Positions 15,991-63,276 are shown, counted from the stretch's first letter. The stretch: 64,000 nt of DNA from a virus (IMGVR_UViG_3300033994_001756:1-64000); one strand, 5' to 3'. A program made the numbers and translations. Notes: a model not told the origin generated them from the letters alone.

Positions 15991-16119
15991 ATGGAAACCA
16001 CCTACGACTTTGTTGATCTTGAAACTGAGTGGCAGGATGATTTACTAATCCCTGCAGCTGATGATGATGAAAGTGAAACAAACTTTCGTCATTTTATTAA
16101 CTCTAACATTGATTACTGA
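15991..16119 (+). CDS. small acidic protein (42 aa)
   Basis: Manual translation METTYDFVDLE... Confidence 0.5.
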   Translation: METTYDFVDLETEWQDDLLIPAADDDESETNFRHFINSNIDY

Positions 16120-16127
16120 GAATTATT

Positions 16128-16262
16128 ATGTCTAAAGAACTGCTAATTTCAATGCTTCGCAAGGGTCAAACGGGCAATGAGATTCTTAGTATTCTCAACA
16201 TGCTCACAGATGAGTCTGATGATACTATGTCAGAACCCACACCAGACGAGATTAAGTTCTGA
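16128..16262 (+). CDS. small protein (44 aa)
   Basis: MSKELLISMLRKGQTGNEILSIL...; stop overlaps Box B. Confidence 0.6.
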   Translation: MSKELLISMLRKGQTGNEILSILNMLTDESDDTMSEPTPDEIKF

Positions 16263-16316
16263 TTAGTATTACTAATCAATCAGGGGGTTGACATCCCAGC
16301 CCCCACCTGTTAAATT
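16261..16316 (+). promoter_or_regulatory. Box B plus promoter
   Basis: GATTAGTATTACTAATC; TTGACA(16288)-17-TAAATT. Confidence 0.8.
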
Positions 16317-16345
16317 ATTAACTGTACACCCACCACACAAACATC

Positions 16346-16603
16346 ATGGCAACTGTAATCGCTCCTGTGCATCGTTCATTTACCAAAGAACAGTCCAGTG
16401 CTATTAACTCTATCACTGTAGACAACACTGATGTTATTATTACATATCACAGCAATGTAGACAAAGCATATACCTTTACTGCAAGTGAGTCTTATGCTCA
16501 GTTCCTGAGTGATCTTATGACTAATGATGAGATCCTGAAGAATGTAAGCATTGGTTCTACTATTGCTGATGCACGTAAGACTGAAGAACTGAAGGCGGTG
16601 TGA
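16346..16603 (+). CDS. small early protein (possibly KTSC-like)
   Basis: SSAINSI...ITY.S...Y.F...SIG pattern. Confidence 0.6.
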   Translation: MATVIAPVHRSFTKEQSSAINSITVDNTDVIITYHSNVDKAYTFTASESYAQFLSDLMTNDEILKNVSIGSTIADARKTEELKAV

Positions 16604-16724
16604 TAGGATTCTGGGGGGTGCGATTCCCCCCTCCCACTACATTATTACACATTGTGACAGCTGAACTCCTTGCACTGCTGGTTATTGTTAAACTGTTGAA
16701 CGTAGCCAATCGCAAACTAACGTC

Positions 16725-16916
16725 ATGGCTCCGATGATCACTGTCAAACCTATCTCAAAGAAGGCAAAGAACAGGTTCGCTAATCTAATGGATTCTTGCG
16801 AGCATTGTGTTGTTGAACAACACAAAGGTGATAAAGTATTCTTGCGTTCACTAAATTGCAAGAACTTCTTCTGGGTTAATGTACACCACGATCAGGATTG
16901 GGAGCTGGAAATGTAA
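16725..16916 (+). CDS. hypothetical cyanophage protein
   Basis: VKPISKKAKNRFANLM...FFWV...D.DW. Confidence 0.7.
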   Translation: MAPMITVKPISKKAKNRFANLMDSCEHCVVEQHKGDKVFLRSLNCKNFFWVNVHHDQDWELEM

Positions 16917-16993
16917 TTATTTCGATTTGTAACGCCAGCCCACACCAAGGCTCGGCTGGCGTGCTACTATTACTTCAGTCGCAACCCAATCCA

Positions 16994-17752
16994 GTGACCG
17001 ACCTTCTGACCTTCTCTCACGGTAACGCCAAGCTTGGCAAGGGCACGCTGATTTTCTCTTTACCAGCTGGCAAGACTTGTCCCGGTGCTCTATTCTGTCT
17101 CTCGTTTGCTGTTGTTAATGAAGACGGCAAGCGTAAGGTTCAGGATGGCCCACATACTGAGTTTCGTTGCTTTGCTGCAACTAGCGAGGCACAATACGAT
17201 GGCCCATTCTTTGCTCGTGCTCGCAATCTCCAGCTGATTGCTGATGCTATTAAAGAGAGCACTGCAGTGGAATTGTTGAACACTAGCCTGCAGAATGCTC
17301 GCAAGAAGAATAGCAAGCTGGTGAGAATTCACGAGTCTGGAGACTTCTTCAGTGGAGCATATTTGGATGCTTGGATTGAAGTAGCCAAGCTGAACCCTGA
17401 TCTTAAGTTCTACTGCTACAGCAAAAACCTGCCACTGTTTGTAGGTTTGGAACTACCTGCTAATTTCTACATGACGGCAAGCTATGGTGGCAAATTCGAT
17501 CACTACATCGACGCAGGTGTGTTCCCTCGCTATAGTAAAGTCGTCCACAATGACGAGGAAGCTGAGGCTATGGGTCTGGAAGTAGATCACGATGATAGCC
17601 ACTGTTTTGGTGACAAGCCTTTCGCTTTGCTGGTGCATTCAACCCAGCCTAAAGGTTCAACCTACGGCAAAGCTGTTCATGCTCGCCGTCGTGCTGGTAA
17701 GTTTAGCGGTTACAAAAAGGAACGGCAAGCTATTCTGGCCAGCAAAGTGTAA
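16994..17752 (+). CDS. Gp88-like (Fe-S/radical-SAM-like) protein
   Basis: GNAKL, FSLPAG.TCPGA..C, CFAA, RIHESGDF, FYCYSK; GTG start after promoter. Confidence 0.7.
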   Translation: MTDLLTFSHGNAKLGKGTLIFSLPAGKTCPGALFCLSFAVVNEDGKRKVQDGPHTEFRCFAATSEAQYDGPFFARARNLQLIADAIKESTAVELLNTSLQNARKKNSKLVRIHESGDFFSGAYLDAWIEVAKLNPDLKFYCYSKNLPLFVGLELPANFYMTASYGGKFDHYIDAGVFPRYSKVVHNDEEAEAMGLEVDHDDSHCFGDKPFALLVHSTQPKGSTYGKAVHARRRAGKFSGYKKERQAILASKV

Positions 17753-17857
17753 TTATTTCACTTTGTAACAATCAGGGTCTGACCCATAGCCAGGGTCCCC
17801 CTGATACCCTATACTTAGATCACGGGGACAGAGATCCCCCACACACCCCACAAGACA

Positions 17858-18172
17858 ATGACCCGCAACGATCGTCTTACCAGCACCAGCATTCCCAAGG
17901 TCGTGGCTGTTGCCCTTGCTAAGGTTACCGTGGCACGGCCCCACGTTATCGGTCGCCATCGTGCCCAATGGCTGTTCGATCTGGCCACTAGCGACACAGC
18001 ACTACAGGCCGAGCGCAAGCTAGCACGTAAGGCCCTGCAGGCCGCAGCAGACTCTGCAGGGCGTAACATCAGCGCCAAGGCTGATGGCACCCCTATCACC
18101 AACCGTGTCTACTCTAAGGCCAGCAACAAAAGGCTAGTTCGCTGGAGCCAGGATCGTCCTAGCCCAGTCTGA
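17858..18172 (+). CDS. basic hypothetical protein
   Basis: Follows hairpin and TATACT (17810); C/A-rich leader. Confidence 0.6.
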   Translation: MTRNDRLTSTSIPKVVAVALAKVTVARPHVIGRHRAQWLFDLATSDTALQAERKLARKALQAAADSAGRNISAKADGTPITNRVYSKASNKRLVRWSQDRPSPV

Positions 18173-18186
18173 CAAGTGGCACACCG

Positions 18187-18210
18187 GGGCTTGACAGCAA
18201 GCCCTTTTTT
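18187..18210 (+). terminator. rho-independent terminator containing TTGACA
   Basis: GGGCTTG-acag-CAAGCCC-TTTTTT. Confidence 0.7.
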
Positions 18211-18300
18211 GTGCTGTTTTTTCTAGATTATTTCATGGCAGGCGGCGTGGCGACCATTTCATCAGCAGGCTTACCCCAGCCCTCGTTCGCTTGTGAACAT

Positions 18301-18413
18301 AGTCTAGCACACCGCCAGCCCCAAACCGAGCCCAGCTGTGACCAGTTCACAAATCGTCACACAGAAAAAGAGAGTCTACCTTCAGTCTAGCACACCGTCC
18401 GAGCACCCGTCAA
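18301..18413 (-). promoter_or_regulatory. two tandem antisense promoters
   Basis: Minus TTGACG-18-TAGACT (18413-18384); second TGcTAGACT at 18301; shared 14-mer AGTCTAGCACACCG. Confidence 0.65.
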
Positions 18414-18503
18414 GTCCTAAAACCAGTTCAACCACTGGCACAAGACCCCCTAGACTCTGGCCAGGATCTGTGCGATTCTATGGGGGTCAAACAAAGGCAC
18501 CCC

Positions 18504-18653
18504 ATGAATCCCTTCCTCACTGATTCTCAAGTAGAAGAACTGAACACTATGGGTTATATTGAATTGACTGAAGAATTATTAAGCGTTATATTTAATACTA
18601 CCAATGTAGTTTGGGAGAATGATATTCTGGTAGACAAGAATTATTATCAGTAA
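18504..18653 (+). CDS. small hypothetical protein (49 aa)
   Basis: MNPFLTDSQVEELNTMGY...; follows Box A 18420. Confidence 0.5.
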   Translation: MNPFLTDSQVEELNTMGYIELTEELLSVIFNTTNVVWENDILVDKNYYQ

Positions 18654-18840
18654 TATAAAATTATTAACAGTATTACAAATTATTAACCGTAATAGGTAAT
18701 ACTTAACCATACATCCCCCCCACACACGTGGGGGCACAATGTATATACATTTTACATTGTGACAATCCAAGGGCTGGCCACCAACTGGCCCACACCACGC
18801 CAGCCCACCTGCTATACTGATCTCAGTTCAGCCAAAGGCT

Positions 18841-19050
18841 ATGATCGCCAACCACGCCACCGCACAAGACTTCGCCAACTGGGAGGCCAAAGCCAAGGCC
18901 ATGACTATGGCTGGGCTGGTATGGTCAGCACAAGATGCTCGCAAGGCCCAACAGGCGATGCGAGGCTGGAACCCCATCGCTGAGGGTCGCTACAGCGATG
19001 AGGCGAGCACCTATGAGGATGAGATCAGGCGTCGCAGGGCCAGGGCCTGA
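18841..19050 (+). CDS. small early protein
   Basis: TGcTATACT at 18810-18818 upstream. Confidence 0.7.
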   Translation: MIANHATAQDFANWEAKAKAMTMAGLVWSAQDARKAQQAMRGWNPIAEGRYSDEASTYEDEIRRRRARA

Positions 19051-19208
19051 GCTGGCACAAGGCCAGCTGGCCTGCTGGCACACGCTAAACCCCAGTGGGC
19101 CAGTTCTAGAACTGCCACAGCTGTGCCACTTCTAAAGGCTGCACAAGCCCCTGTTGCCAGCTGCCGCTTGGGCCTGCTAGTGTTCCTTACGTACACCGCA
19201 CTACAGCG

Positions 19209-19463
19209 ATGACCACCACTGAAACCCGCCTCACCGTTGAACAGGCCACCTACGCTGTGGAGAGGTTGCTGAGCTGGGCTGACAGCGAGGATGATCGCAA
19301 GCCGAGCACGTTTGCCCTGTGGCTGAGCCTTACCGGAAACGGCGGCACACTATGGGCTTTCGACAGAGGCTACCTAGAGTGCTCGATGCTCGCCGATGCC
19401 CTGCAGGCATGGGCCACCTACCCGAACGAGATCCGAGATTGGCTGGCTGACAACTGCATCTGA
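19209..19463 (+). CDS. cassette gene, hypothetical
   Basis: TTGCCA(19154)-18-TAGTGT promoter; stop inside repeat head. Confidence 0.7.
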   Translation: MTTTETRLTVEQATYAVERLLSWADSEDDRKPSTFALWLSLTGNGGTLWAFDRGYLECSMLADALQAWATYPNEIRDWLADNCI

Positions 19464-19530
19464 GCCCAGCCGGGGACCCTACGGGGTCCCCCCATCTGCT
19501 AAGATTCTCAAGTCCAACCGACACAGACCA

Positions 19531-19761
19531 ATGTCCCGCACCATCTCCACCGATTGCATCCGTTACACTGTTAGTGGCTATGAGTACGATTACGAGCCCA
19601 AAAACTACATGGGCACCCTTGACTGGTTCAACGTCGCCCGTTGTGCCCGTGAGCGCATGACTGAGAATTGCGGCGAAATTAACCGCTGGCGGGGTGAGCG
19701 TCGCTCTTTCTATACGTCCATTGTCAAGATGGACGCCGACACCAAGCATTTGATGGACTGA
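19531..19761 (+). CDS. cassette gene, hypothetical (76 aa)
   Basis: ATG 19531 after TGcTAAGAT. Confidence 0.7.
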   Translation: MSRTISTDCIRYTVSGYEYDYEPKNYMGTLDWFNVARCARERMTENCGEINRWRGERRSFYTSIVKMDADTKHLMD

Positions 19762-19835
19762 CAGCGAGCCCAGCCGGGGACCCTACGGGGTCCCCCTTCC
19801 GTGGTACACTTTACGAGTCCAACCGACACAGACCA

Positions 19836-20021
19836 ATGGCCACGATCAGCCCCATTGAAGCCGACTTTCTGACCCATTGCATTGACGTATGGTGCAATGA
19901 GACTCCCCAGGTCGCCGGCAGGCCCGTGATGTTTACCACGCAAGAGGGTGGAACTGAAAGGGTCCTGCTGACCCACGATCAAATCGAATCCCTGTTCCTG
20001 CGCCTGCAGGCATTGAAGTGA
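19836..20021 (+). CDS. cassette gene, hypothetical
   Basis: After TGgTACACT; stop inside repeat. Confidence 0.7.
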   Translation: MATISPIEADFLTHCIDVWCNETPQVAGRPVMFTTQEGGTERVLLTHDQIESLFLRLQALK

Positions 20022-20080
20022 GCCCAGCTGGGGAGCCTACGGGCTCCCCTTCCTACCCACAAACCAACCCACCTAAGGCC

Positions 20081-20281
20081 ATGGTCAGCACTATCAGCAC
20101 TCACACGGCTTACGATCGCCCGGAAGGGCTGCCCCTTTCCACCGGTAGGTGGGAGATGTGGTGGTGTCTTGCCTGTAACGCTGGCTACCGGGGCGACCGG
20201 CAAGCCAAGCGGCTGGCGCTCGCCCAATACAGGCGAGCAGTCGAGCTGGAGATCGGCTCCCAACTCCTATTCGACGCCTGA
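20081..20281 (+). CDS. cassette gene, hypothetical (66 aa)
   Basis: ATG 20081; stop inside repeat. Confidence 0.65.
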   Translation: MVSTISTHTAYDRPEGLPLSTGRWEMWWCLACNAGYRGDRQAKRLALAQYRRAVELEIGSQLLFDA

Positions 20282-20350
20282 GGCCAGCCGGGGCCAGCTA
20301 CTGGCCCCATCCTGTGGTAGAGTTTGCAAGCAAACCAAGGGAGAACCCCC

Positions 20351-20548
20351 ATGGCTTTCTATCTGCAGGCACCCTCCGGCACCATCGCCACCTTTGAACA
20401 GCTGGCGGCTGATCGGATGGTGTTCGCTTGCGGCCCTGACGTTGTGGAGCTGTCCCTAGAGGATGCTCGCAAGGTCTGGCAGGCCCTGCTGATCTGCCAG
20501 TATCAGCCCACTGATAGGGAGGCTGCACTCCTACATCAGGGCTGGTGA
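20351..20548 (+). CDS. cassette gene, hypothetical (65 aa)
   Basis: ATG 20351 after TGgTAGAGT and GGAG. Confidence 0.7.
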   Translation: MAFYLQAPSGTIATFEQLAADRMVFACGPDVVELSLEDARKVWQALLICQYQPTDREAALLHQGW

Positions 20549-20639
20549 GCCCAGCCGGGGCAAGCTTGACGGCTTGCCCCTTCATCCTCTATACTTAATC
20601 TCAAGCGGGCCGATCGGTGCCCGCACCGCTTCTCAGACC

Positions 20640-20924
20640 ATGGAATACAGCGACCTTTTCACCCCCTGCTCGGTAGGCGACCTGCGCCTACCGCCTAAGT
20701 TCCAGACGATACTTCACGTGCTGTACGTAGATACAGCAGCAAACCAGCCCACACGTGGCTGGCTGTATTTGCCAGCTGGGTTGGTTCTGAGCTGGGCTTG
20801 TGAGCCCGAGCACGGCGAGGAAGTGGAACTGTGGGCATGTGGCCCGCTCAGCCTCACCCGGCCCATGACAGATGAGGAGCGTGAGGATTGGCGCTGCGAT
20901 CAGTACGATCCCGCCGACTGGTGA
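20640..20924 (+). CDS. cassette gene, hypothetical (94 aa)
   Basis: TTGACG(20566)-18-TATACT; ATG 20640. Confidence 0.7.
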   Translation: MEYSDLFTPCSVGDLRLPPKFQTILHVLYVDTAANQPTRGWLYLPAGLVLSWACEPEHGEEVELWACGPLSLTRPMTDEEREDWRCDQYDPADW

Positions 20925-20984
20925 GCCCAGCCGGGGACCCTACTGGGTCCCCCTTCCTACCTACACCCCACAAGCACAAGCACC

Positions 20985-21173
20985 ATGTACGAAACCCTTA
21001 GGGAAGCCACCGAAGCCCGCATGAACGAGCAGGGCTGCATCCCCTATCAGGATGCTTTCAGTGAATCGATCAGCCACGGTGTCGGGCAAGAGTTTTTGGC
21101 CCTGTATGGCTCAGCCATAGGCTGGCCCAATGGGGTTGACGCCGGGGAGTGGCTGGTCTGGCTAGGTTACTGA
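20985..21173 (+). CDS. cassette gene, hypothetical
   Basis: ORF between repeats, ends WLGY. Confidence 0.7.
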   Translation: MYETLREATEARMNEQGCIPYQDAFSESISHGVGQEFLALYGSAIGWPNGVDAGEWLVWLGY

Positions 21174-21268
21174 ATATGAACTTTAGGGCCAGCTCAGCCA
21201 CGGCTGGCCCGCCCATCCTGTAGGATTATCTCAAGCGGGCCGATCGGTGCCCGCACTGCCTGAAGACC

Positions 21269-21562
21269 ATGAATCGCCAACTGCTGACCATCGCCGACGC
21301 CTACATCTCGAACATGTTCGAGTGGGCACGCCGTGCCGACTGCGAGTTTGGCACCGCTTGTGCCGAGCTCGAAACCTACGTCTGCTCGATCACCACGTAC
21401 CGGGAGGATGGCCACGCTTTTGAGAATTGCCCCCACGATCTCTACCAGACCGTGGCGATGCCTGACGGGTTCGCTGAGCTGGAGGATGACGAGGCAGATC
21501 TGGTGATCGAATACCTCGGCGACGTGTGGCCCAGCCTCTGGCGGGACGCCATGGCCTGGTGA
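21269..21562 (+). CDS. cassette gene, acidic hypothetical
   Basis: TAGGAT(21221) -10; stop inside repeat. Confidence 0.7.
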   Translation: MNRQLLTIADAYISNMFEWARRADCEFGTACAELETYVCSITTYREDGHAFENCPHDLYQTVAMPDGFAELEDDEADLVIEYLGDVWPSLWRDAMAW

Positions 21563-21952
21563 GCCCAGCCGGGAGCCCTACGGGGCTCCCCCATTGATCA
21601 GCAATCCTAATCGATCAGCAGTCCTTATCAGTGGGCAGGGGCAGTATAAACGGCCCTTATCGGTCGCCGCCCGCCGTACCCGTGAAAAACCTCTAACTAC
21701 CCTAAGCTATAACGTACCCAGAAAGCCAGAGAGATACTCAACCAACTCAAAAATTTTCCACCAACCTCCAAGCCCATCCAAGGTTTCCCCATATGCCCCT
21801 CCCAACCCGCACAACATATTCCGAGCAATTCACATATATCGCCCTTTGTCTTACCGAGTGTATCAAAATAATCTCGGAAAAAATTTTCAACAAAAAAAAT
21901 TCCGAGAACCGTTTAGATCCTCGGAAAAAATAATTTATTTGAGTTTGTAGAT

Positions 21953-22558
21953 TTAATGATTAGGATCAATAAATGTCCCAGTATGTTTCACTGGATCTAA
22001 AGGCTTTGCACCTCTCGCCTTTTGTTTTGGTGAACGATTTCTTGTAATTCCTGCTTGTACTCCCTTTTCATTTGGTTCACTCATTCCCTGGGATCTTGTA
22101 TTCAATGATGCCCTACGATCTCCTACTGGTTGTGATACTAATGTAGTTCCAGGTCTTGCTGAAGATGATACTTTCTTTTTAATATCCTGCATTGCTTTAC
22201 CTGCACCAATTCTATCAGTTGTTTCTCCAGTTTTAGTTGTATTCTGAATAAATGTATTTGGTTTATCTCCTGGGGTATAGGTTACTTGAATTGGATGTTT
22301 TTTGTGTGTGAATGTATGAGTTCCTGTCTTATCATCCTTTTTATAATCAATATCAGGATGCCTTGGATTGTTGATTGGTTCTGCGAATTTTCCAACTGAT
22401 GCTCTTACTTTATTAACATCCGTTCCCTTCTTTCTTGCAAGACTTAATGGACTTTCTGTTCCAGCTCTCAATTTCTTTGATGCAGGTGGAATCCAAGCAT
22501 CATCTAAAAGTTGAGTATGTTGCTTTGCTTCTTCTAGGAACTGAGCAAATGTTTTCAT
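21953..22558 (-). CDS. putative capsid internal protein
   Basis: MKTFAQFLEEA, resembling T4 CTS; basic. Confidence 0.65.
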   Translation of the reverse strand: MKTFAQFLEEAKQHTQLLDDAWIPPASKKLRAGTESPLSLARKKGTDVNKVRASVGKFAEPINNPRHPDIDYKKDDKTGTHTFTHKKHPIQVTYTPGDKPNTFIQNTTKTGETTDRIGAGKAMQDIKKKVSSSARPGTTLVSQPVGDRRASLNTRSQGMSEPNEKGVQAGITRNRSPKQKARGAKPLDPVKHTGTFIDPNH

Positions 22559-22560
22559 GC

Positions 22561-23196
22561 TTAACCTCTTTTGAATTGATATCGAGTAGTTTTATCTTGT
22601 CTAGTCATTTTAAGTTTATCACGATATAACTTCTCACGACTTGGAGAGTGTCTTCCAGTATTCATATCTGTTGGAACTCCACCAAAAGATTTTCCACCTA
22701 CAGACCTAACATCCTTTGGAACATTTTTCACTGCCTTCATAAACTTTCTACCACTTGTCATCTTAGAGTCATCTTTGTTTGTATTGTAGATATCAACATC
22801 AGAAAATGGTTTTCTGTGGTTTCTTCCTAAGTGTTTTGTAATACTCTTAACAACTTGATGTTGATCTTTCTTTGGTGACTTAAACATTTGCATAGTACGA
22901 AGTCTTTCGTTTGCAAAGTGTCCAGAGTTTTTATGGGTTGTAACTTTCGTTTCCATTCCATCATTTTTGATGGATTTGGTTTCGGGAGTTTTTAAGTTTG
23001 CAGATCCTTTTGGAAGTCCATGCCTTCTGAGCATAGCTCTTCGTTGAGTTCTTTGTTGTGTTGGAGGAGTATTATCATATTCACCATAAGTTCTATTACG
23101 AGCCATAAACCCTCTGGTCGAAGAGGGTCCTCTAGGGCTTAATGCTCTTCCGATTCTTCTTTCAGACTCTAATAGAAATTCAGAATATGTCTTCAT
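22561..23196 (-). CDS. putative capsid internal protein
   Basis: MKTYSEFLLE; very basic. Confidence 0.65.
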   Translation of the reverse strand: MKTYSEFLLESERRIGRALSPRGPSSTRGFMARNRTYGEYDNTPPTQQRTQRRAMLRRHGLPKGSANLKTPETKSIKNDGMETKVTTHKNSGHFANERLRTMQMFKSPKKDQHQVVKSITKHLGRNHRKPFSDVDIYNTNKDDSKMTSGRKFMKAVKNVPKDVRSVGGKSFGGVPTDMNTGRHSPSREKLYRDKLKMTRQDKTTRYQFKRG

Positions 23197-23807
23197 GCCT
23201 GACCTCTTTGCTTTGATGCAACTTGTGATCTTCTGGAAGATTCTACAATAACTTCACCTAAGATTGAATCCACCCAAGCATCAGACATAGACTCACAAAT
23301 TCCTACAGCACTTTCATAGGAGTTTGCATATCCTTCATTTACAAGATAATCTAGAATATACTCAATATCTTCTCTACGGAATCTCTTGATTGTATTTGAT
23401 GCATTCACCTTTTTATTTGATGGCCTATTCCAATTCCTTGGACCAGGAGCAATGACACTTTGTGGTTTATTGAGATTGTGAATCCTAACTCCTAGTTCAT
23501 GTGCTTTTTGTCTGATATGATCAATTTTACTATCATGTACTTTTTTTCTAGCTTCTATATCACCTTGCTTCATTCTAAGTGAATGAGTAATATTTCTAAG
23601 TTGATTATTCTTATTCTTTACGTCTTTTCTAATACCAGGACGAAATCTTGCTAATGGTCTTGCTTTTTGGGTTTTAATATCTGACTGTAGCTGTTTAGCT
23701 TTCTTTGCAACCTTAGGAATACTTTTATCTGGCATTGATCTAAAATTTCTTTCCTTCCAATCTTGATCTTCATACATAGATTGGTAGGCTTCTAATAGAT
23801 TAGTCAT
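23193..23807 (-). CDS. putative head-associated protein
   Basis: LLEAYQSMYE N-terminus; ILDYLVNEGYA...MSDAW..SI domain. Confidence 0.6.
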   Translation of the reverse strand: MTNLLEAYQSMYEDQDWKERNFRSMPDKSIPKVAKKAKQLQSDIKTQKARPLARFRPGIRKDVKNKNNQLRNITHSLRMKQGDIEARKKVHDSKIDHIRQKAHELGVRIHNLNKPQSVIAPGPRNWNRPSNKKVNASNTIKRFRREDIEYILDYLVNEGYANSYESAVGICESMSDAWVDSILGEVIVESSRRSQVASKQRGQA

Positions 23808-23827
23808 TAGGTTAAAAAATTTTTAAT

Positions 23828-23835
23828 TATTTATT
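23828..23835 (-). promoter_or_regulatory. T4-type late promoter
   Basis: AATAAATA on minus strand, 21 bp upstream of ATG 23807. Confidence 0.7.
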
Positions 23836-23869
23836 TCGGCTATATACTGTAGTTTTTAATACACACTAC

Positions 23870-24052
23870 ATGTCAACATTTTCTTCGTTTACAACAGAAG
23901 TGCAGTATGATGATAAGTCTGGCGAATACTTTATTACATTTCCAGATGAGATCGTTGATGAGATGCAATGGCAAGAGGGCGATACTTTAGAGTTTGAATA
24001 CTTTGATCACCATGATACTCCAGGTATTCGCATACATAAAGTAGGAGACTGA
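23870..24052 (+). CDS. AbrB/SpoVT-like DNA-binding protein
   Basis: YFITFPDEIVDEMQWQEGDTLEF swapped-hairpin pattern. Confidence 0.65.
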   Translation: MSTFSSFTTEVQYDDKSGEYFITFPDEIVDEMQWQEGDTLEFEYFDHHDTPGIRIHKVGD

Positions 24053-24062
24053 TTTAAATAAT

Positions 24063-27000
24063 ATGTCTAATTGTAGTCCAAAGAAAGATCCAGTAGATGC
24101 TAAGTTAACGTTTACATACCCACAGTGCCCTGCACCACAAGAAGGTCCAGCAGCTCAGATTACCATAGAATTTCCTTATATTGAGAAATATTGGTATGAA
24201 GTAAGACCTCCTAGCTTAGCAAATAAAACCATACGGAATGGAAGCAAACAGGAAAAACTTCGTCGCACTGTAATTCAAGTACCTGCTGTTGATGCAGAGA
24301 ATTCAGATGGTGACAATGTAAACTTTGTTGATCAAGTATTTTATCAGCCAGAGTATGAGATTACTGGTTCTGGTGATAATATCAAAAGTAAGCCAGTCTA
24401 TGAAAGATTCTGCAAGGCAGATAAAGTATATGATGAGCAATACTTCTATCATATCTTTGAGTGGCCACTAACACATACTCTCCCTGCACGTCCAGTGGGA
24501 GGTATTACTGTAACTACTCCCCCACCACCTCCACCAGGATCTGAAGGGGGAGCTGAAAGTTGCCCAATCTATGCAGTATCCAGTACAAGTGTTAGCGGTA
24601 CATTTACACTTAATAGAGTAGACAGTCAAGTAATTGGCCTACCTGAGGGTAGCGTTGCTTACCATGGAGGTACACTCGATAATAAGATATTCTTCTACTA
24701 TGAGAATACCTCCAATAAAGATATGATTGCTGTTGGTGATGTCATCAATGGATGGACAGTCAACAAAGTAGTCAACTATAACTCTGAGCACCTTAACGAA
24801 AAATCTTTGAGGACTACAGAATCTGTTAGAAGAAGAGTTTCTAAGTTTTCTGAGAGAAACAAGACTCCTGGGTTTATCTTCATCAACAAGAATGATGGAG
24901 CAGAGGATAGAATTATCAACCTTGGGGACTTAGTGACTGGCTACGGTATTCAGAAGGATACTTATGTAGATAGTATCCAGGGGCTTAAGATCTTTCTTAC
25001 TAAACCCTTAAAGTACAAGAGCAAGCAAAAAGTTAGAAACGTTAAATTCACCAATACTGGTCTAGCAAACAACATCTCAAACCAGATTCTTTGCTATGCT
25101 GAGATTAGTGGCGGTAGTGCTCCCTTTGTGAAGGACCAGTACTATTCAAAAGCAACCCCCTCAACTCCCCAGTATACAAGCACTGTTTACCATGTTTTTG
25201 ACAATAAAAAGAACAAAGACATACAATTGACCACAACTAAAGATATTAAAGTACAAGTTATTAATAAAAACGATGAAGGTGGTTCAAATGACAGTGAAAG
25301 TAGAAAATATTACCTAGTTACCTTTTTAGATAATACCACAATTACTTCTAAAAATGATATTCAAATTTCTATTACAGATGATCAAAGTGCATCTGGAGCA
25401 GAAAACTCATTTGTGTTTGTATCCAAAGTTGAAGTTGTAAACACTAAAAGCTTTAAAGTATGGTTTAAAACTAACGATAATAAAATCAATACATATGTTC
25501 GTGGGTGGTCTGTCACCAGAGTTCAAGGTCAAGCACTGATTCCAGTCAACAGAATTCAAGTTATTGCTGGTAGAGGTATCACAGACAGGTCTGCAGTCTG
25601 TGGTGTTTATGTTAGTAACGATAAAAAGTTCTATACTTATACTCCTCTATTCTATTCTAGAGATGGATTCTGCGAATCTACTTACCTAGAAGATGATTTA
25701 GGCAAGTTTGCACTTGGCAATGTCATTCTAAATGATGGGTCTACCTACATTCAACAGCAGTTTTTATGTGCTTCACCTGCAACTGACACTGCATATCAAA
25801 TAAACAACGTATTTTGGACATATTTCAACAGACCTGCAGAGATTAATGAGTTAAAAACTTGGATAGATCGTCTAGCTTCCTCTGATTTTCTTACTATTCA
25901 AACCAAAATTGTTGAATCTGAAAAACTTAACCTTGGTGGAAAGACTGTATTGGCAGTCAAAGACTCTGAATGTGATAGTAATATCACACCAGACTACTCA
26001 AAAGTCTATTATCCACATAGTGAATTCAATACTTTTAATGAATATATTGCCCCAATACAGAATGATACTGCATATGACCCATGTATTGATACAAAAACAC
26101 CTAAAAGTTACAGCAAAGAAGAGTTAGATAGTATCGTCACTACAAATCTAGGAGGCAGTTTTAACTTCTCTAGCATTAATTTGCCTGAAGAGATGTATAA
26201 ACAAGTGATTTCAAATGAAAATTCTCTTCAAAATACACTTTTGAAAGCTATTTCTGCTATTGGTGCTTCAGTTCCCAAGCAAACTACCATTCCAAATCTA
26301 CCTCCATTGATTGAAGGTGAGAATAAATCCAGTCAAGTGTTTAAAACTGAGGGTGCTTATCGTATTCCACCAAGATTTAAGTCACTTGAATACATCATTG
26401 AAGACTTTAGTTTCGTCAGTGATTCAAGTTTGTTGCCAGATTCAGATGAAAACAATATTGAAATTCAAATTAAGTCTATTCCAAGATGGACTGGAACTGT
26501 AAGTCCAGCAAGTGGAGCTGGATGGCAAGCAAATGTCAATACTACAAATGGATTCATTTCTACAGTAACTATTTCTGCAGTACCTTTCCCCGCTCCACCA
26601 TTAGGTGGAAGTACTACATCATGGGCAACTGGACCCGCACCTACCACATTCTGGCATGGGGATGATACTAACTATCAAGTTACATTTAAAAAGATCTTAA
26701 ACTTCCGAGTTAATGAGGTCAGCGAAAATATTTCCAATGCAGTAAAGAATAAAGGTAATCCATATATGGATGAACCTCCATATGCAAAACTAACCCAGGA
26801 ACTAAAAACAACTGATACTACCATTATAGTTGATAGCACAAGTCAATTTATTTCTGCAGGCTATTTAATTATTCCAAAATTTATTGTCAAAAAAGAAATA
26901 AACCCAGAAACTAGAAATGAGACCTTACATCATTACTACCTAGGTGAAGAGATTATCTACTATAAAGATAAAACTGAAACAGAGTTCTTACAATGCACAC

Positions 27001-61884: not shown

Positions 61885-63276
61885 ATGTTTAATTCAGAAC
61901 AGCTACAAAGAAAATGGGCTCCTATCCTGGAGCATAACGATCTAAATCCAATTACAGATAGATATCGTAAGGCAGTAACCGCAGTTCTCCTTGAGAACCA
62001 AGAATCATTTCTCCGTGAAGAGCGTGGAGTTCTTTCAGAAGTTGCTGTTAACAGCACTGGTTCATTCACTGCAGGTGGTGCTGGTACAGGCGCACATGGC
62101 TTCTCAGGTGGCGCAGCCGCTGGCGGTCCTGTTGCTGGTTTCGATCCAGTTCTAATCAGCCTCATTCGCCGTTCAATGCCTAAGCTAATTGCTTATGACA
62201 TTTGCGGTGTTCAGCCAATGAGCGGTCCTACTGGACTAATCTTCGCAATGCGTGCTCATCGTGGTACTGACCGTAACGGTAACGGTGCTACTCCAAACGT
62301 ATTCGACAACGAGACCTTCTTCAACGAAGTTCCTTCTGGTTTCTCTGCTGCTGGTGGTGCATACTCTGCTGCAACTGGCGAAACTGCAACCAACCCAGGC
62401 GTACTAAACGCTGCTTCTCCTGGTGATTATGGTTACGTTGGTGGTATGAACACCAACGCTGCTGAAGCTCTAGGTGAGTCTGGTTCAGAGTTCCGTGAAA
62501 TGAGCTTCTCAATCGAGAAGGTAACTGTAACAGCAAAGAGCCGTGCTCTAAAAGCTGAGTACACCCTAGAACTAGCACAAGACCTCAAGGCTATTCATGG
62601 TCTTGATGCTGAGACTGAGCTTGCTAACATCCTAAGCTCAGAGATTCTAACTGAAATCAACCGTGAAGTTGTACGTACCATCTACGTAACCGCTAAGCCT
62701 GGTGCTCAGAACAACGTAGCTAACGCTGGTACTTTTGACCTCGACGTTGACTCCAATGGTCGTTGGTCAGTTGAGAAGTTCAAGGGTCTACTATTCCAGA
62801 TCGAGCGTGATGCAAACGCAATCGGTCATGAGACTCGTCGTGGAAAGGGCAACTTCATCGTCTGTTCAGCAGACGTTGCAAGTGCTCTAGCTGCAGCTAA
62901 GGTAATGGATTACACCCCACTACTCAATCCTAACGATACCCCAGACGACACCGTATCAACTCTAGCTGGTACAATCAATGGTCGTATCAAGGTTTATGTT
63001 GATCCTTATTCAGCAAACATCTCTAACGATCACTACTATGTGATGGGTTATAAGGGAACCAATGCATACGATGCAGGTCTCTTCTACTGCCCATACGTTC
63101 CTCTCCAAATGGTTCGTTCCATCGGTCAGGACACCTTCCAGCCTAAGATTGGCTTCAAGACCCGTTACGGCATGGTTGCAAACCCATTCGCAGGTGGTCT
63201 TACCCAGCGTTCTGGCGCTCTCCAAGCAAACGATAACGTTTACTACAGAAGAACCAGAGTTATCAACCTAATGTGA
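61885..63276 (+). CDS. gp23: major capsid protein gp23
   Basis: GVQPMSGPTGLIFAMR, SRALKAEYTLELAQDL, FQPKIGFKTRYG. Confidence 0.98.
   Translation: MFNSEQLQRKWAPILEHNDLNPITDRYRKAVTAVLLENQESFLREERGVLSEVAVNSTGSFTAGGAGTGAHGFSGGAAAGGPVAGFDPVLISLIRRSMPKLIAYDICGVQPMSGPTGLIFAMRAHRGTDRNGNGATPNVFDNETFFNEVPSGFSAAGGAYSAATGETATNPGVLNAASPGDYGYVGGMNTNAAEALGESGSEFREMSFSIEKVTVTAKSRALKAEYTLELAQDLKAIHGLDAETELANILSSEILTEINREVVRTIYVTAKPGAQNNVANAGTFDLDVDSNGRWSVEKFKGLLFQIERDANAIGHETRRGKGNFIVCSADVASALAAAKVMDYTPLLNPNDTPDDTVSTLAGTINGRIKVYVDPYSANISNDHYYVMGYKGTNAYDAGLFYCPYVPLQMVRSIGQDTFQPKIGFKTRYGMVANPFAGGLTQRSGALQANDNVYYRRTRVINLM

Follow-up and report, generated by a model that had tools for sequence, protein, structure and literature searches.

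Organization of the locus

The DNA analysed here, referred to as the window, is a stretch of 64,000 nt that corresponds to the first 64 kb of the 172,253-bp viral contig IMGVR_UViG_3300033994_001756, and all coordinates refer to it. We describe an array of small genes on the + strand (19209-21562), the boundaries of which are marked by a repeated box that overlaps the stop codon and is followed by a GC-rich hairpin. The contig has direct terminal repeats and is estimated to be complete. Its closest isolates are the freshwater Synechococcus myoviruses S-SRM01, DSL-LC03 and B3/B23 (Kyanoviridae), and the source virus is a T4-like cyanomyovirus of lake water, of the Kyanoviridae type. UvsY and a UvsX-like RecA protein are encoded in the genome.

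A single run of small + strand genes spans positions 1 to ~21,600. Within a genome of 36.7% GC, the 17-21.9 kb interval forms a 50-61% GC island, at the border of which the GC content steps abruptly from ~0.35-0.40 to 0.59-0.61; 13 of the 25 strong GC hairpins of the genome sit at 15-25 kb. A GP88-family gene (PF17338; 16994-17752), which starts with GTG, has an intermediate GC content (0.48) and is conserved across the clade, served as the anchor to retrieve 80 related viral loci. In many of the 70 related loci that were profiled, the GP88 gene is followed by a GC-rich island 0.5-4 kb in length. Related loci are labelled L060-L226 (L226 is S-SRM01), and G001 is a close relative with a similar array. 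X7, X10 and X13 are lake-metagenome runs, and X18 is an RNA library available as contigs only.

Repeated units at the gene boundaries

Eight open reading frames (ORFs) of 61-97 aa, all starting with ATG, lie between 19209 and 21562. An earlier note on this DNA, made from the sequence alone, had given the same size range and counted seven; in addition to the eighth, at least two GC-rich cassettes are found upstream (17858-18172 and 18841-19050). The array ORFs fall into different BLASTP clusters and are therefore unrelated to one another, as the note had stated.

The box TGAGCCCAGCC, allowing at most one mismatch, occurs in seven copies against 0.42 expected, and none of 100 shuffled sequences reached this number. 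The copies, which start at 19461, 19765, 20019, 20279, 20546, 20922 and 21560, are found on the + strand only, and in the whole 172,253-bp genome they are confined to the array locus. A perfect GC-rich hairpin of 8-10 bp lies directly 3' of every box. The repeated stop/hairpin boundary recognised in the earlier note is thus real and statistically solid. In six of the seven copies the TGA of the box is the stop codon of the upstream gene; the exception is the box at 19765, where the upstream stop occurs 6 nt earlier (19759-19761). As also noted earlier, three genes end with a Trp codon followed by the stop (TGG-TGA, at 20543, 20919 and 21557). At these ends, the sequences CUGG and CCAG can pair as a small second hairpin that holds the stop codon in its loop.

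From 5' to 3', the units consist of the stop codon and a C-rich spacer of ~8 nt, the hairpin, 8-10 pyrimidine-rich nt, a -10-like hexamer, a leader of 20-45 nt and the ATG of the next gene. Cassette 1 (family F, 84 aa, 19209-19463) ends with the TGA of the first repeat. Unit 1 (19461-19530) is made of the box TGAGCCCAGCC (19461-19471), a hairpin with a C(UACG)G loop (19472-19491), the TGn-extended -10 hexamer TAAGAT (19500-19505) and a leader, and it is followed by cassette 2 (76 aa, 19531-19761). Unit 2 (19765-19835) carries the box CGAGCCCAGCC, a hairpin (19776-19795), the TGn-extended hexamer TACACT (19805-19810) and a leader that duplicates the unit 1 leader. Downstream of cassette 3 (family H, 61 aa, 19836-20021), unit 3 (20019-20080) features the box, a hairpin with the compensatory variant stem GGGGAGCC/GGCTCCCC (20030-20049) and a 31-nt leader, and is devoid of a -10 box. 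Cassette 4 (family C, 66 aa, 20081-20281) precedes unit 4 (20279-20350), in which the box TGAGGCCAGCC and the hairpin (20290-20308) are followed by the TGn-extended hexamer TAGAGT (20318-20323) and by a leader with a Shine-Dalgarno-like GGGAGA site.

Unit 5 (20546-20639), located between cassette 5 (65 aa, 20351-20548) and cassette 6 (family B, 94 aa, 20640-20924), is the most elaborate. Its 9-bp hairpin (20557-20580; -31 kcal/mol, z-score -4.2) displays the -35 hexamer TTGACG in the loop (20566-20571), 18 nt from the -10 hexamer TATACT (20590-20595), and the 20566-20595 segment thus has the make-up of a complete sigma-70-type promoter whose -35 lies in a loop. Unit 6 (20922-20984) has the box and a hairpin with a UACU loop (20933-20952), again with no -10 box. 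Unit 7 (21174-21268) follows cassette 7 (family D, 62 aa, 20985-21173). The earlier note had listed a partial copy of the repeat near 21186; a hairpin does occupy the same slot (21186-21210), but it is a different one, has no box, and is followed by the -10 hexamer TAGGAT (21221-21226). At the orthologous position in L223 and L224, a C-G pair of this unit is changed to T-A. The array ends with cassette 8 (family I, 97 aa, 21269-21562) and a terminal unit (21560-21590), which is composed of the box and the hairpin GGGAGCCC/GGGCTCCC (21571-21590) and precedes no gene.

Hairpins vary in sequence more than in shape. The stem GGGGACCC-uacg-GGGUCCCC is present three times in the array, and the variant stems GGGGAGCC/GGCUCCCC, GGGAGCCC/GGGCUCCC, GGGGCCAG/CUGGCCCC and GGGGCAAGC/GCUUGCCCC are each perfectly paired, so that GGGGACCC, GGGGAGCC, GGGAGCCC, GGGGCCAG and GGGGCAAGC differ from one another by compensatory changes that leave pairing intact. 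The loops are mostly C(UACG)G. Box-hairpin copies fold at -19 to -31 kcal/mol. Single-hairpin z-scores are modest (-0.8 to -4.2) because the sequences are short and GC-rich; the argument for the hairpins therefore rests on their position, covariation and controls. Of the seven units located ahead of a gene, five carry a -10 box (TAAGAT, TACACT, TAGAGT, TATACT or TAGGAT, with TGn on three) in a conserved register.

Units 5 and 7 carry the same leader hairpin, GCGGGC-N8-GCCCGC (20605-20624 and 21235-21254), in the 5' untranslated region just 3' of the -10 box. The hairpin recurs in several phages, with loop variation, ahead of a variety of genes (J, B, I, q and others), and it might stabilise 5' ends or act as a regulator site. 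An Rfam search of 16000-24500 at E<=1 gave no match.

Unit architecture across the clade

The same architecture was sought in 211 3' flanks of GC-rich cassettes from related viral contigs, scoring perfect, GC-rich stems of at least 7 bp located within 55 nt. Such stems were found in 85 of the 211 flanks, compared with 3 of 200 inside ORFs and 2 of 211 shuffled flanks. The hairpin starts 7-8 nt past the stop in 39 of the 85 flanks, and a TAnnnT hexamer is located 6-11 nt past the hairpin in 51. A TAnnnT element with no -35 partner is a typical cyanobacterial promoter signature. When 49 non-identical units were aligned on the -10 box, the consensus was TACAAT, with TGn ahead of it in 18 units; an A/G-rich start region is located ~6 nt downstream, and in 28 of the 49 units the distance to the ATG is 20-29 nt.

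The 30 tetraloops include 11 of the UNCG and 6 of the GNRA type. Since such loops are RNA-stability features, the hairpin is most likely read as RNA. Eight units across the clade contain TTGAC inside the loop (as TTGACR, 17-18 nt from the -10 box), and these loops, together with the fixed register of the -10 box, suggest that the DNA of the hairpin may also serve the promoter of the next gene.

A reversed order of elements, in which the -10 box (TACACT or TGCTAAGAT) precedes the hairpin, was observed in S-SRM01 (L226, 3298-3870), L078 and L082. With this order, one stem-loop could terminate the upstream gene and also be the 5' stem-loop of the transcript that follows; in the reversed unit of S-SRM01, a T-rich tail comes after the hairpin.

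The cassette genes

Within the shared families, the doubtful ORF E described below excepted, differences between haplotypes are 2-5 times more frequent at third codon positions, cassette 7 being one of the genes showing this bias in the haplotype comparison. Because differences fall mainly at third positions, the cassettes are real genes. They are also compositionally distinct, or foreign, as the GC content at third codon positions (GC3) is 0.61-0.80 in cassettes and 0.14-0.35 in core genes.

Homologues were found in other phages. Cassette G (69 aa, 18841-19050, GC3 0.71) is 69% identical to a protein of the siphovirus S-2L, a phage of 70% GC, and has a homologue in S-SRM01. Cassette 2 has a homologue (64% identity) in the T7-like cyanophage DSL-LC07, where it adjoins an annotated antirestriction gene. 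A tblastn search of isolate phages with cassettes 1, 4 and 8 gave no match. The relatives of cassettes 6 and 8 are metagenomic only; for cassette 6 they form 15 homologue clusters, and its neighbours differ between phages. Pfam and PHROG scans of nine cassette proteins returned nothing significant, the AlphaFold model of the cassette 6 family (predicted local distance difference test score, pLDDT, 65) had no Foldseek match in the PDB at E<=0.001, and an ESM Atlas search with cassette 8 gave no usable match. A role in early host takeover or anti-defence is a guess.

Turnover of cassettes among related phages

The array is limited on the left by gene A (17858-18172) and on the right by a conserved non-coding element (21591 to ~21790). 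Between these limits, the number of cassettes is 0 in L065, 1 in L060, L066 and DSL-LC03, 2 in L063, 4-5 in L064 and ~10 in the window and in G001. Overall, at least 10 array haplotypes with 0 to ~10 cassettes were distinguished at the locus. In the closely related arrays, the order is A-E-(G/M)-[o]-F-(2/p/y/none)-(H/none)-C-(5/J/N)-B-D-(I/q). Family C is conserved in six haplotypes, the presence of family H varies, and cassette 5 is private to the window haplotype, its slot being held by family J or N elsewhere. Sequence identity changes along the array in a mosaic fashion: the window shares 97% identity with L223/L224 in family A, 97-100% with G001 in families C, B and D, and 97% with L220 in family H.

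The earlier note had taken the array for a gene-shuffling platform built of single-gene cassettes, in which content and order would vary at the repeats. Alignment of relatives bears this out, with breakpoints at the stop/hairpin/promoter units. For instance, the window and G001, which are 84-98% identical in flanking sequences, differ by four replacements or insertions, and all eight breakpoints fall in units or at the ATG. One of these replacements affects cassette 8: G001 has an unrelated 58-aa gene between the ATG and the terminal hairpin. After family C, the box TGAGGCCAGCC of G001 is fused to a GGGGCAAGC hairpin, a type different from that of unit 4 in the window, and the GGGGCAAGC hairpin-promoter-leader unit is duplicated, with one copy on each side of cassette J.

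Cassette 2 is bracketed by direct unit copies (19461-19535 and 19765-19840) that share 31 identical nt over box and hairpin. The cassette is missing from L220, L221, L224 and one X18 contig, and L220 and L224 carry a single hybrid unit at the place where the window has the cassette between two units. Independent lake-metagenome contigs revealed further junctions: 20025->20557, which joins repeat to repeat (X13), 19520->19832, which joins leader to leader, 19822->20081, which removes cassette 3, and an insertion of 277 nt at 19211. Loose contig ends begin at 19491, 20071, 20081 and 21271, that is, at a hairpin end, a leader or an ATG. Breakpoint sites are thus found at the spacer/hairpin border, in leaders and at the ATG.

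Downstream of the same gene, hairpin types, -10 boxes and leaders are re-assorted in different haplotypes, and the predominant box/hairpin allele differs from genome to genome. The window carries seven GCCCAGCC-type boxes, five of them exact, and L220 carries GCCCTAT followed by a GGGGAGCC-uccg hairpin. Such re-assortment and genome-specific alleles suggest that exchange between units is frequent.

Interpretation and relation to known systems

The locus is best explained as a hyperplastic early-gene region, made of single-gene, GC-rich cassettes separated by composite regulatory units. Repeats that combine a stem-loop with a sigma-70 promoter, called promoter-early stem-loops (PeSLs), have been described in the hyperplastic regions of RB49/phi1, T4/PST and KVP40/nt-1 (Arbiol et al. 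2010, PMC2839356; Comeau et al. 2014, PMC4122927). Their stems are often of the GGGG...CCCC type, their promoter and terminator activities were measured, crossovers were mapped within the units and mini-circles were detected (PMC2839356, PMC4122927). We favour, with a probability of roughly 75%, the view that the array is a cyanophage variant of these composite terminator/promoter cassettes, shuffled by homologous recombination through UvsX/UvsY.

The comparison with PeSLs, already drawn in the earlier note, fits in location, composition, repetition and breakpoints. In both cases, a T4-like myovirus harbours small genes, for the most part ORFans, in a hyperplastic region, and a composite unit made of a GGGG...CCCC stem-loop and a putative promoter of the host sigma-70 type fills the interval between the stop codon of one gene and the ATG of the next, in many copies and a single orientation. 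When close relatives are compared, indels and replacements coincide with the units, and the crossovers fall within them. Single genes are framed by units in tandem, and neither system has a dedicated recombinase. The bracketing of cassette 2 by direct units is the geometry that gives rise to PeSL mini-circles.

Differences concern layout and composition. PeSL stem-loops are located upstream of a full -35/-10 promoter, whereas here the stem-loop sits at the -35 position or contains the -35 in its loop. The loops are of the UNCG/GNRA type, and the stop-codon box lies at a fixed register of 7-8 nt within the repeat. The AT-rich upstream region is missing, as is in most cases a Shine-Dalgarno site, and most units have only a -10 box, with or without TGn. 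Cassettes of ~60% GC are found in a 37% GC genome, and some genes are shared with siphoviruses and podoviruses. Promoter and terminator activity and circles, which were demonstrated for PeSLs, are predicted for the array. We classify the difference in layout as that of a variant.

Promoter-coupled terminators, in which a stem-loop acts as the -35 and the -10 lies just downstream, provide a second parallel (Fletcher et al. 2026 preprint, bioRxiv 10.64898/2026.08.19.745784). As in that system, the DNA of the stem-loop would be the -35 region of the next promoter, and the -10 box comes directly after it, between tandem genes; the gap here is 8-10 nt. Those elements, however, are found in bacterial chromosomes and have a T-tract between stem and -10 box, with transcript 3' ends ~10 nt ahead of the following start, whereas the array has a C/T-rich linker with no proper T run. 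Moreover, the units of the array are repeated and may serve as recombination seams.

In 1988, Tuerk and colleagues reportedly described C(UUCG)G intercistronic hairpins in the mRNA of phage T4. Like the hairpins of the array, these are said to be extra-stable C(UNCG)G hairpins between genes of a T4-type phage, and both kinds may stabilise or terminate transcripts; here, by contrast, the hairpin is part of a repeated, promoter-bearing unit that marks cassette boundaries.

Among cyanophages, the 'ORFanage' variable region of S-PM2 has few stem-loops and promoters, and its authors judged the involvement of PeSLs unlikely, while suggesting exchange with freshwater phages (PMC4503421). The S-PM2 region resembles the array in being a losable block of small ORFans in a T4-like cyanophage, but the array has one unit per gene. 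A full-text literature search found no description of PeSL-type arrays in cyanophages, and PMC4503421 was the only paper found that mentions PeSLs in a cyanophage.

In the mechanism that we propose, the hairpin, as RNA, would end or attenuate upstream transcription and protect the 3' end of the message, while the -10 box would restart transcription by the host RNA polymerase, the hairpin occupying the slot of the -35 element. With a terminator or attenuator hairpin and a -10 box of its own, each cassette would be insulated and self-expressed; the two units lacking a -10 box would be read through. The repeated units, which contain near-identical stretches of 31-75 nt, would provide portable homology for UvsX/UvsY. 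A crossover between units of one genome would delete or duplicate a cassette, possibly with a circular by-product, and a crossover between co-infecting phages would insert or replace cassettes while leaving gene and expression intact. We infer promoter and terminator activity, early timing, circle formation and a causal role of the units in recombination.

Several observations weigh against this interpretation. Two of the eight units (3 and 6) lack a -10 box. The hairpins of the window have no U-tract, being followed by tails such as CTTCC and CCATC with no T runs, so that efficient intrinsic termination is doubtful; attenuation or 3'-end protection is expected rather than full termination, because T-rich tails are missing in the window. 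T-rich tails do follow the equivalent hairpins of the isolate S-SRM01. RNA-library contigs from X18 cover much of the array, and one 777-nt piece (100% identity), which spans three cassettes, fits read-through; these data are assembled contigs, which are uninformative on transcription, strand and ends, as are the stretches left uncovered, and they are not counted as expression. No circular junction appeared in the contigs, a type of data unable to reveal one. Furthermore, breakpoints restricted to intergenic positions are also expected from selection against gene-disrupting recombinants, and their location is therefore no proof that the units cause exchange. Lastly, many replacements occur in fixed slots between the conserved F, C, B and D genes, and crossovers within those genes could explain them.

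An alternative view of where the cassettes come from, which we regard as tentative and rather doubtful, is that they belong to a mobile gene pool common to freshwater Synechococcus phages across myoviruses, podoviruses and siphoviruses, with circles or fragments integrating at the hairpin units. Each cassette would carry its own terminator and promoter, and the hairpin units would be preferred targets, for instance of cruciform-directed cutting. If true, the pool would be functionally analogous to an integron while needing no integrase, and would supply early host-takeover or anti-defence genes.

Alternative explanations

According to an explanation that we consider unlikely, the units are purely regulatory, each being a promoter combined with a terminator or stabiliser. 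Turnover would proceed by homologous recombination in flanking conserved genes and by rare illegitimate events, selection would leave only intergenic breakpoints, and the repeats would result from descent or duplication. The fixed slots between F, C, B and D agree with this view, as do identity values that shift block by block and the insertion before gene 1, the left junction of which has only the ATG in common. Yet some junctions fall inside the repeated box/hairpin, as in G001 after family C and in the X13 joint 20025->20557, gene 2 is located between direct units where relatives keep a single hybrid unit, and the genome-specific predominant alleles point to frequent exchange of units.

The box and hairpin might instead constitute a small selfish repeat, similar to repetitive extragenic palindromes or to miniature inverted-repeat transposable elements, that spread beside stop codons and came to lie next to promoters by chance. 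Near-identity of the copies within one genome and the lineage-specific box allele would suit such an element, but we find the idea quite improbable: the repeats have one orientation and a fixed register with both the stop codon and the -10 box, terminal inverted repeats and target duplications are missing, and every relative has some hairpin at the corresponding position, including those with an unrelated sequence there. Nor did the repeat turn up in cyanobacterial genomes when 185,579 species genomes were scanned for the geometry of a box plus an 8-4-8 hairpin; the 61 single matches, attributable to chance, were in Actinobacteria and other unrelated high-GC bacteria. Viral contigs scanned with a 15-mer yielded mostly chance single matches in high-GC contigs, true relatives being only two contigs, and a 21-mer metagenome scan detected G001-type arrays only. 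As no cyanobacterial match emerged from the genome scan, a host-borne origin of the repeat is not supported.

The earlier note had described the array as integron-like. In a true integron-like platform, the hairpins would act as attC-like single-stranded DNA sites for a site-specific recombinase supplied by the phage, the host or a helper. The superficial layout does match, since one-gene cassettes in a single orientation are joined by structured, stop-overlapping repeats of similar length (60-95 nt), and content varies between relatives. Mechanistically, the label does not hold. As the note had observed for the window, no integrase was found: the complete 172-kb genome has no match to PF00589 (tyrosine recombinases), a profile that matched all control genomes, and none to PF00239 (serine recombinases), while UvsX and UvsY are present. 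IntI and the R/L core sites of attC are lacking, and the GTTRRRY motif of attC cores (RYYYAAC...GTTRRRY) is found in no unit. The stems are perfect, with no extrahelical bases, and the loops are of the RNA type (UNCG/GNRA) or hold a -35 hexamer. Most cassettes appear to have their own promoter, whereas integron cassettes are promoterless and depend on a common promoter (Pc). Breakpoints do not share one fixed position but occur at the box/hairpin border, in the leader and at the ATG, as would suit a homologous mechanism. The integron reading is largely refuted and highly improbable, and the analogy is architectural only.

An assembly chimera, in which a foreign GC-rich segment was misjoined into an AT-rich phage contig, would explain the abrupt GC jump, but it is refuted, and its probability negligible, as many independent assemblies and samples (L061-L066, L144-L153, L220-L224 and runs X7, X10 and X13) read across both borders and the isolates DSL-LC03 and S-SRM01 share the organisation of the locus.

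Significance

The question of how phages gain and turn over their many small genes without known function has long been open, and PeSLs are among the few concrete mechanisms proposed. In the literature searched, PeSLs are documented only in T4 relatives infecting enterobacteria and vibrios. In cyanophages, the array seems to follow an identical logic but is more compact, with the hairpin predicted to lie within the promoter, and it has an unusually clear GC signature (~60% in a 37% GC genome). Natural variation is rich: at least 10 haplotypes occur across lakes, and two phages in culture, DSL-LC03 and S-SRM01, possess a locus of this kind. The exchange of cassettes, the coupling of promoter and terminator and the function of the early genes are therefore directly testable. 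For annotators, the units provide a simple rule to recognise gene boundaries and accessory-gene hot spots in freshwater cyanomyoviruses.

Flanking features

Gene A (104 aa, 17858-18172, + strand, GC 0.59), the conserved left anchor, shows third-position bias and is present in all close relatives (family A, 10 haplotypes). It is followed by a canonical intrinsic terminator, GGGGCTT-gacagc-AAGCCC and a T run (18186-18215), which is conserved in five haplotypes. Downstream, ORF E (51 aa, 18235-18390) shows 28, 54 and 71 differences at the first, second and third codon positions, respectively, and is probably non-coding because it lacks third-position bias. Beside it (18480-18703), a 57-aa ORF of 35% GC and AT-rich AATTATTAA repeats (18574-18703) are found inside the GC-rich island.

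The 158-nt spacer between cassettes G and 1 (19051-19208) contains several palindromic half-sites, TGGCACA/TGCCACA. The motif CTGGCACA(C) of this spacer also fills the stop-to-hairpin interval in the more distant relatives L077 and L082. In G001, the extra cassette o is inserted at the end of the spacer.

In every relative, and also in the isolate DSL-LC03, the array is delimited distally by the conserved non-coding element on the + strand at 21591 to ~21790. This element contains GATCAGCA and CTTATCAG repeats and the stretch GGCAGTATAAACGGCCCTTATCGG, is duplicated in L063 and L064, and is covered by an RNA-library contig. The element has no Rfam match; a regulator-binding site and a small RNA are both possibilities.

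On the - strand, 21953-23807 holds three genes of ~200 aa. The N-termini of two of them, MKTFAQFLEE and MKTYSEFLLE, resemble the capsid-targeting sequence of T4 internal proteins (MKTYQEFIAE). DNA comparison revealed no counterpart of the three genes in L060, and the locus is itself variable: G001 carries 561 inserted nt at 23207/23208, as a result of which its third gene encodes a 391-aa protein with an AAA_33 domain. A second local GC peak (0.49, amid 0.36-0.39) occurs at 62001-63000, just upstream of uvsY.

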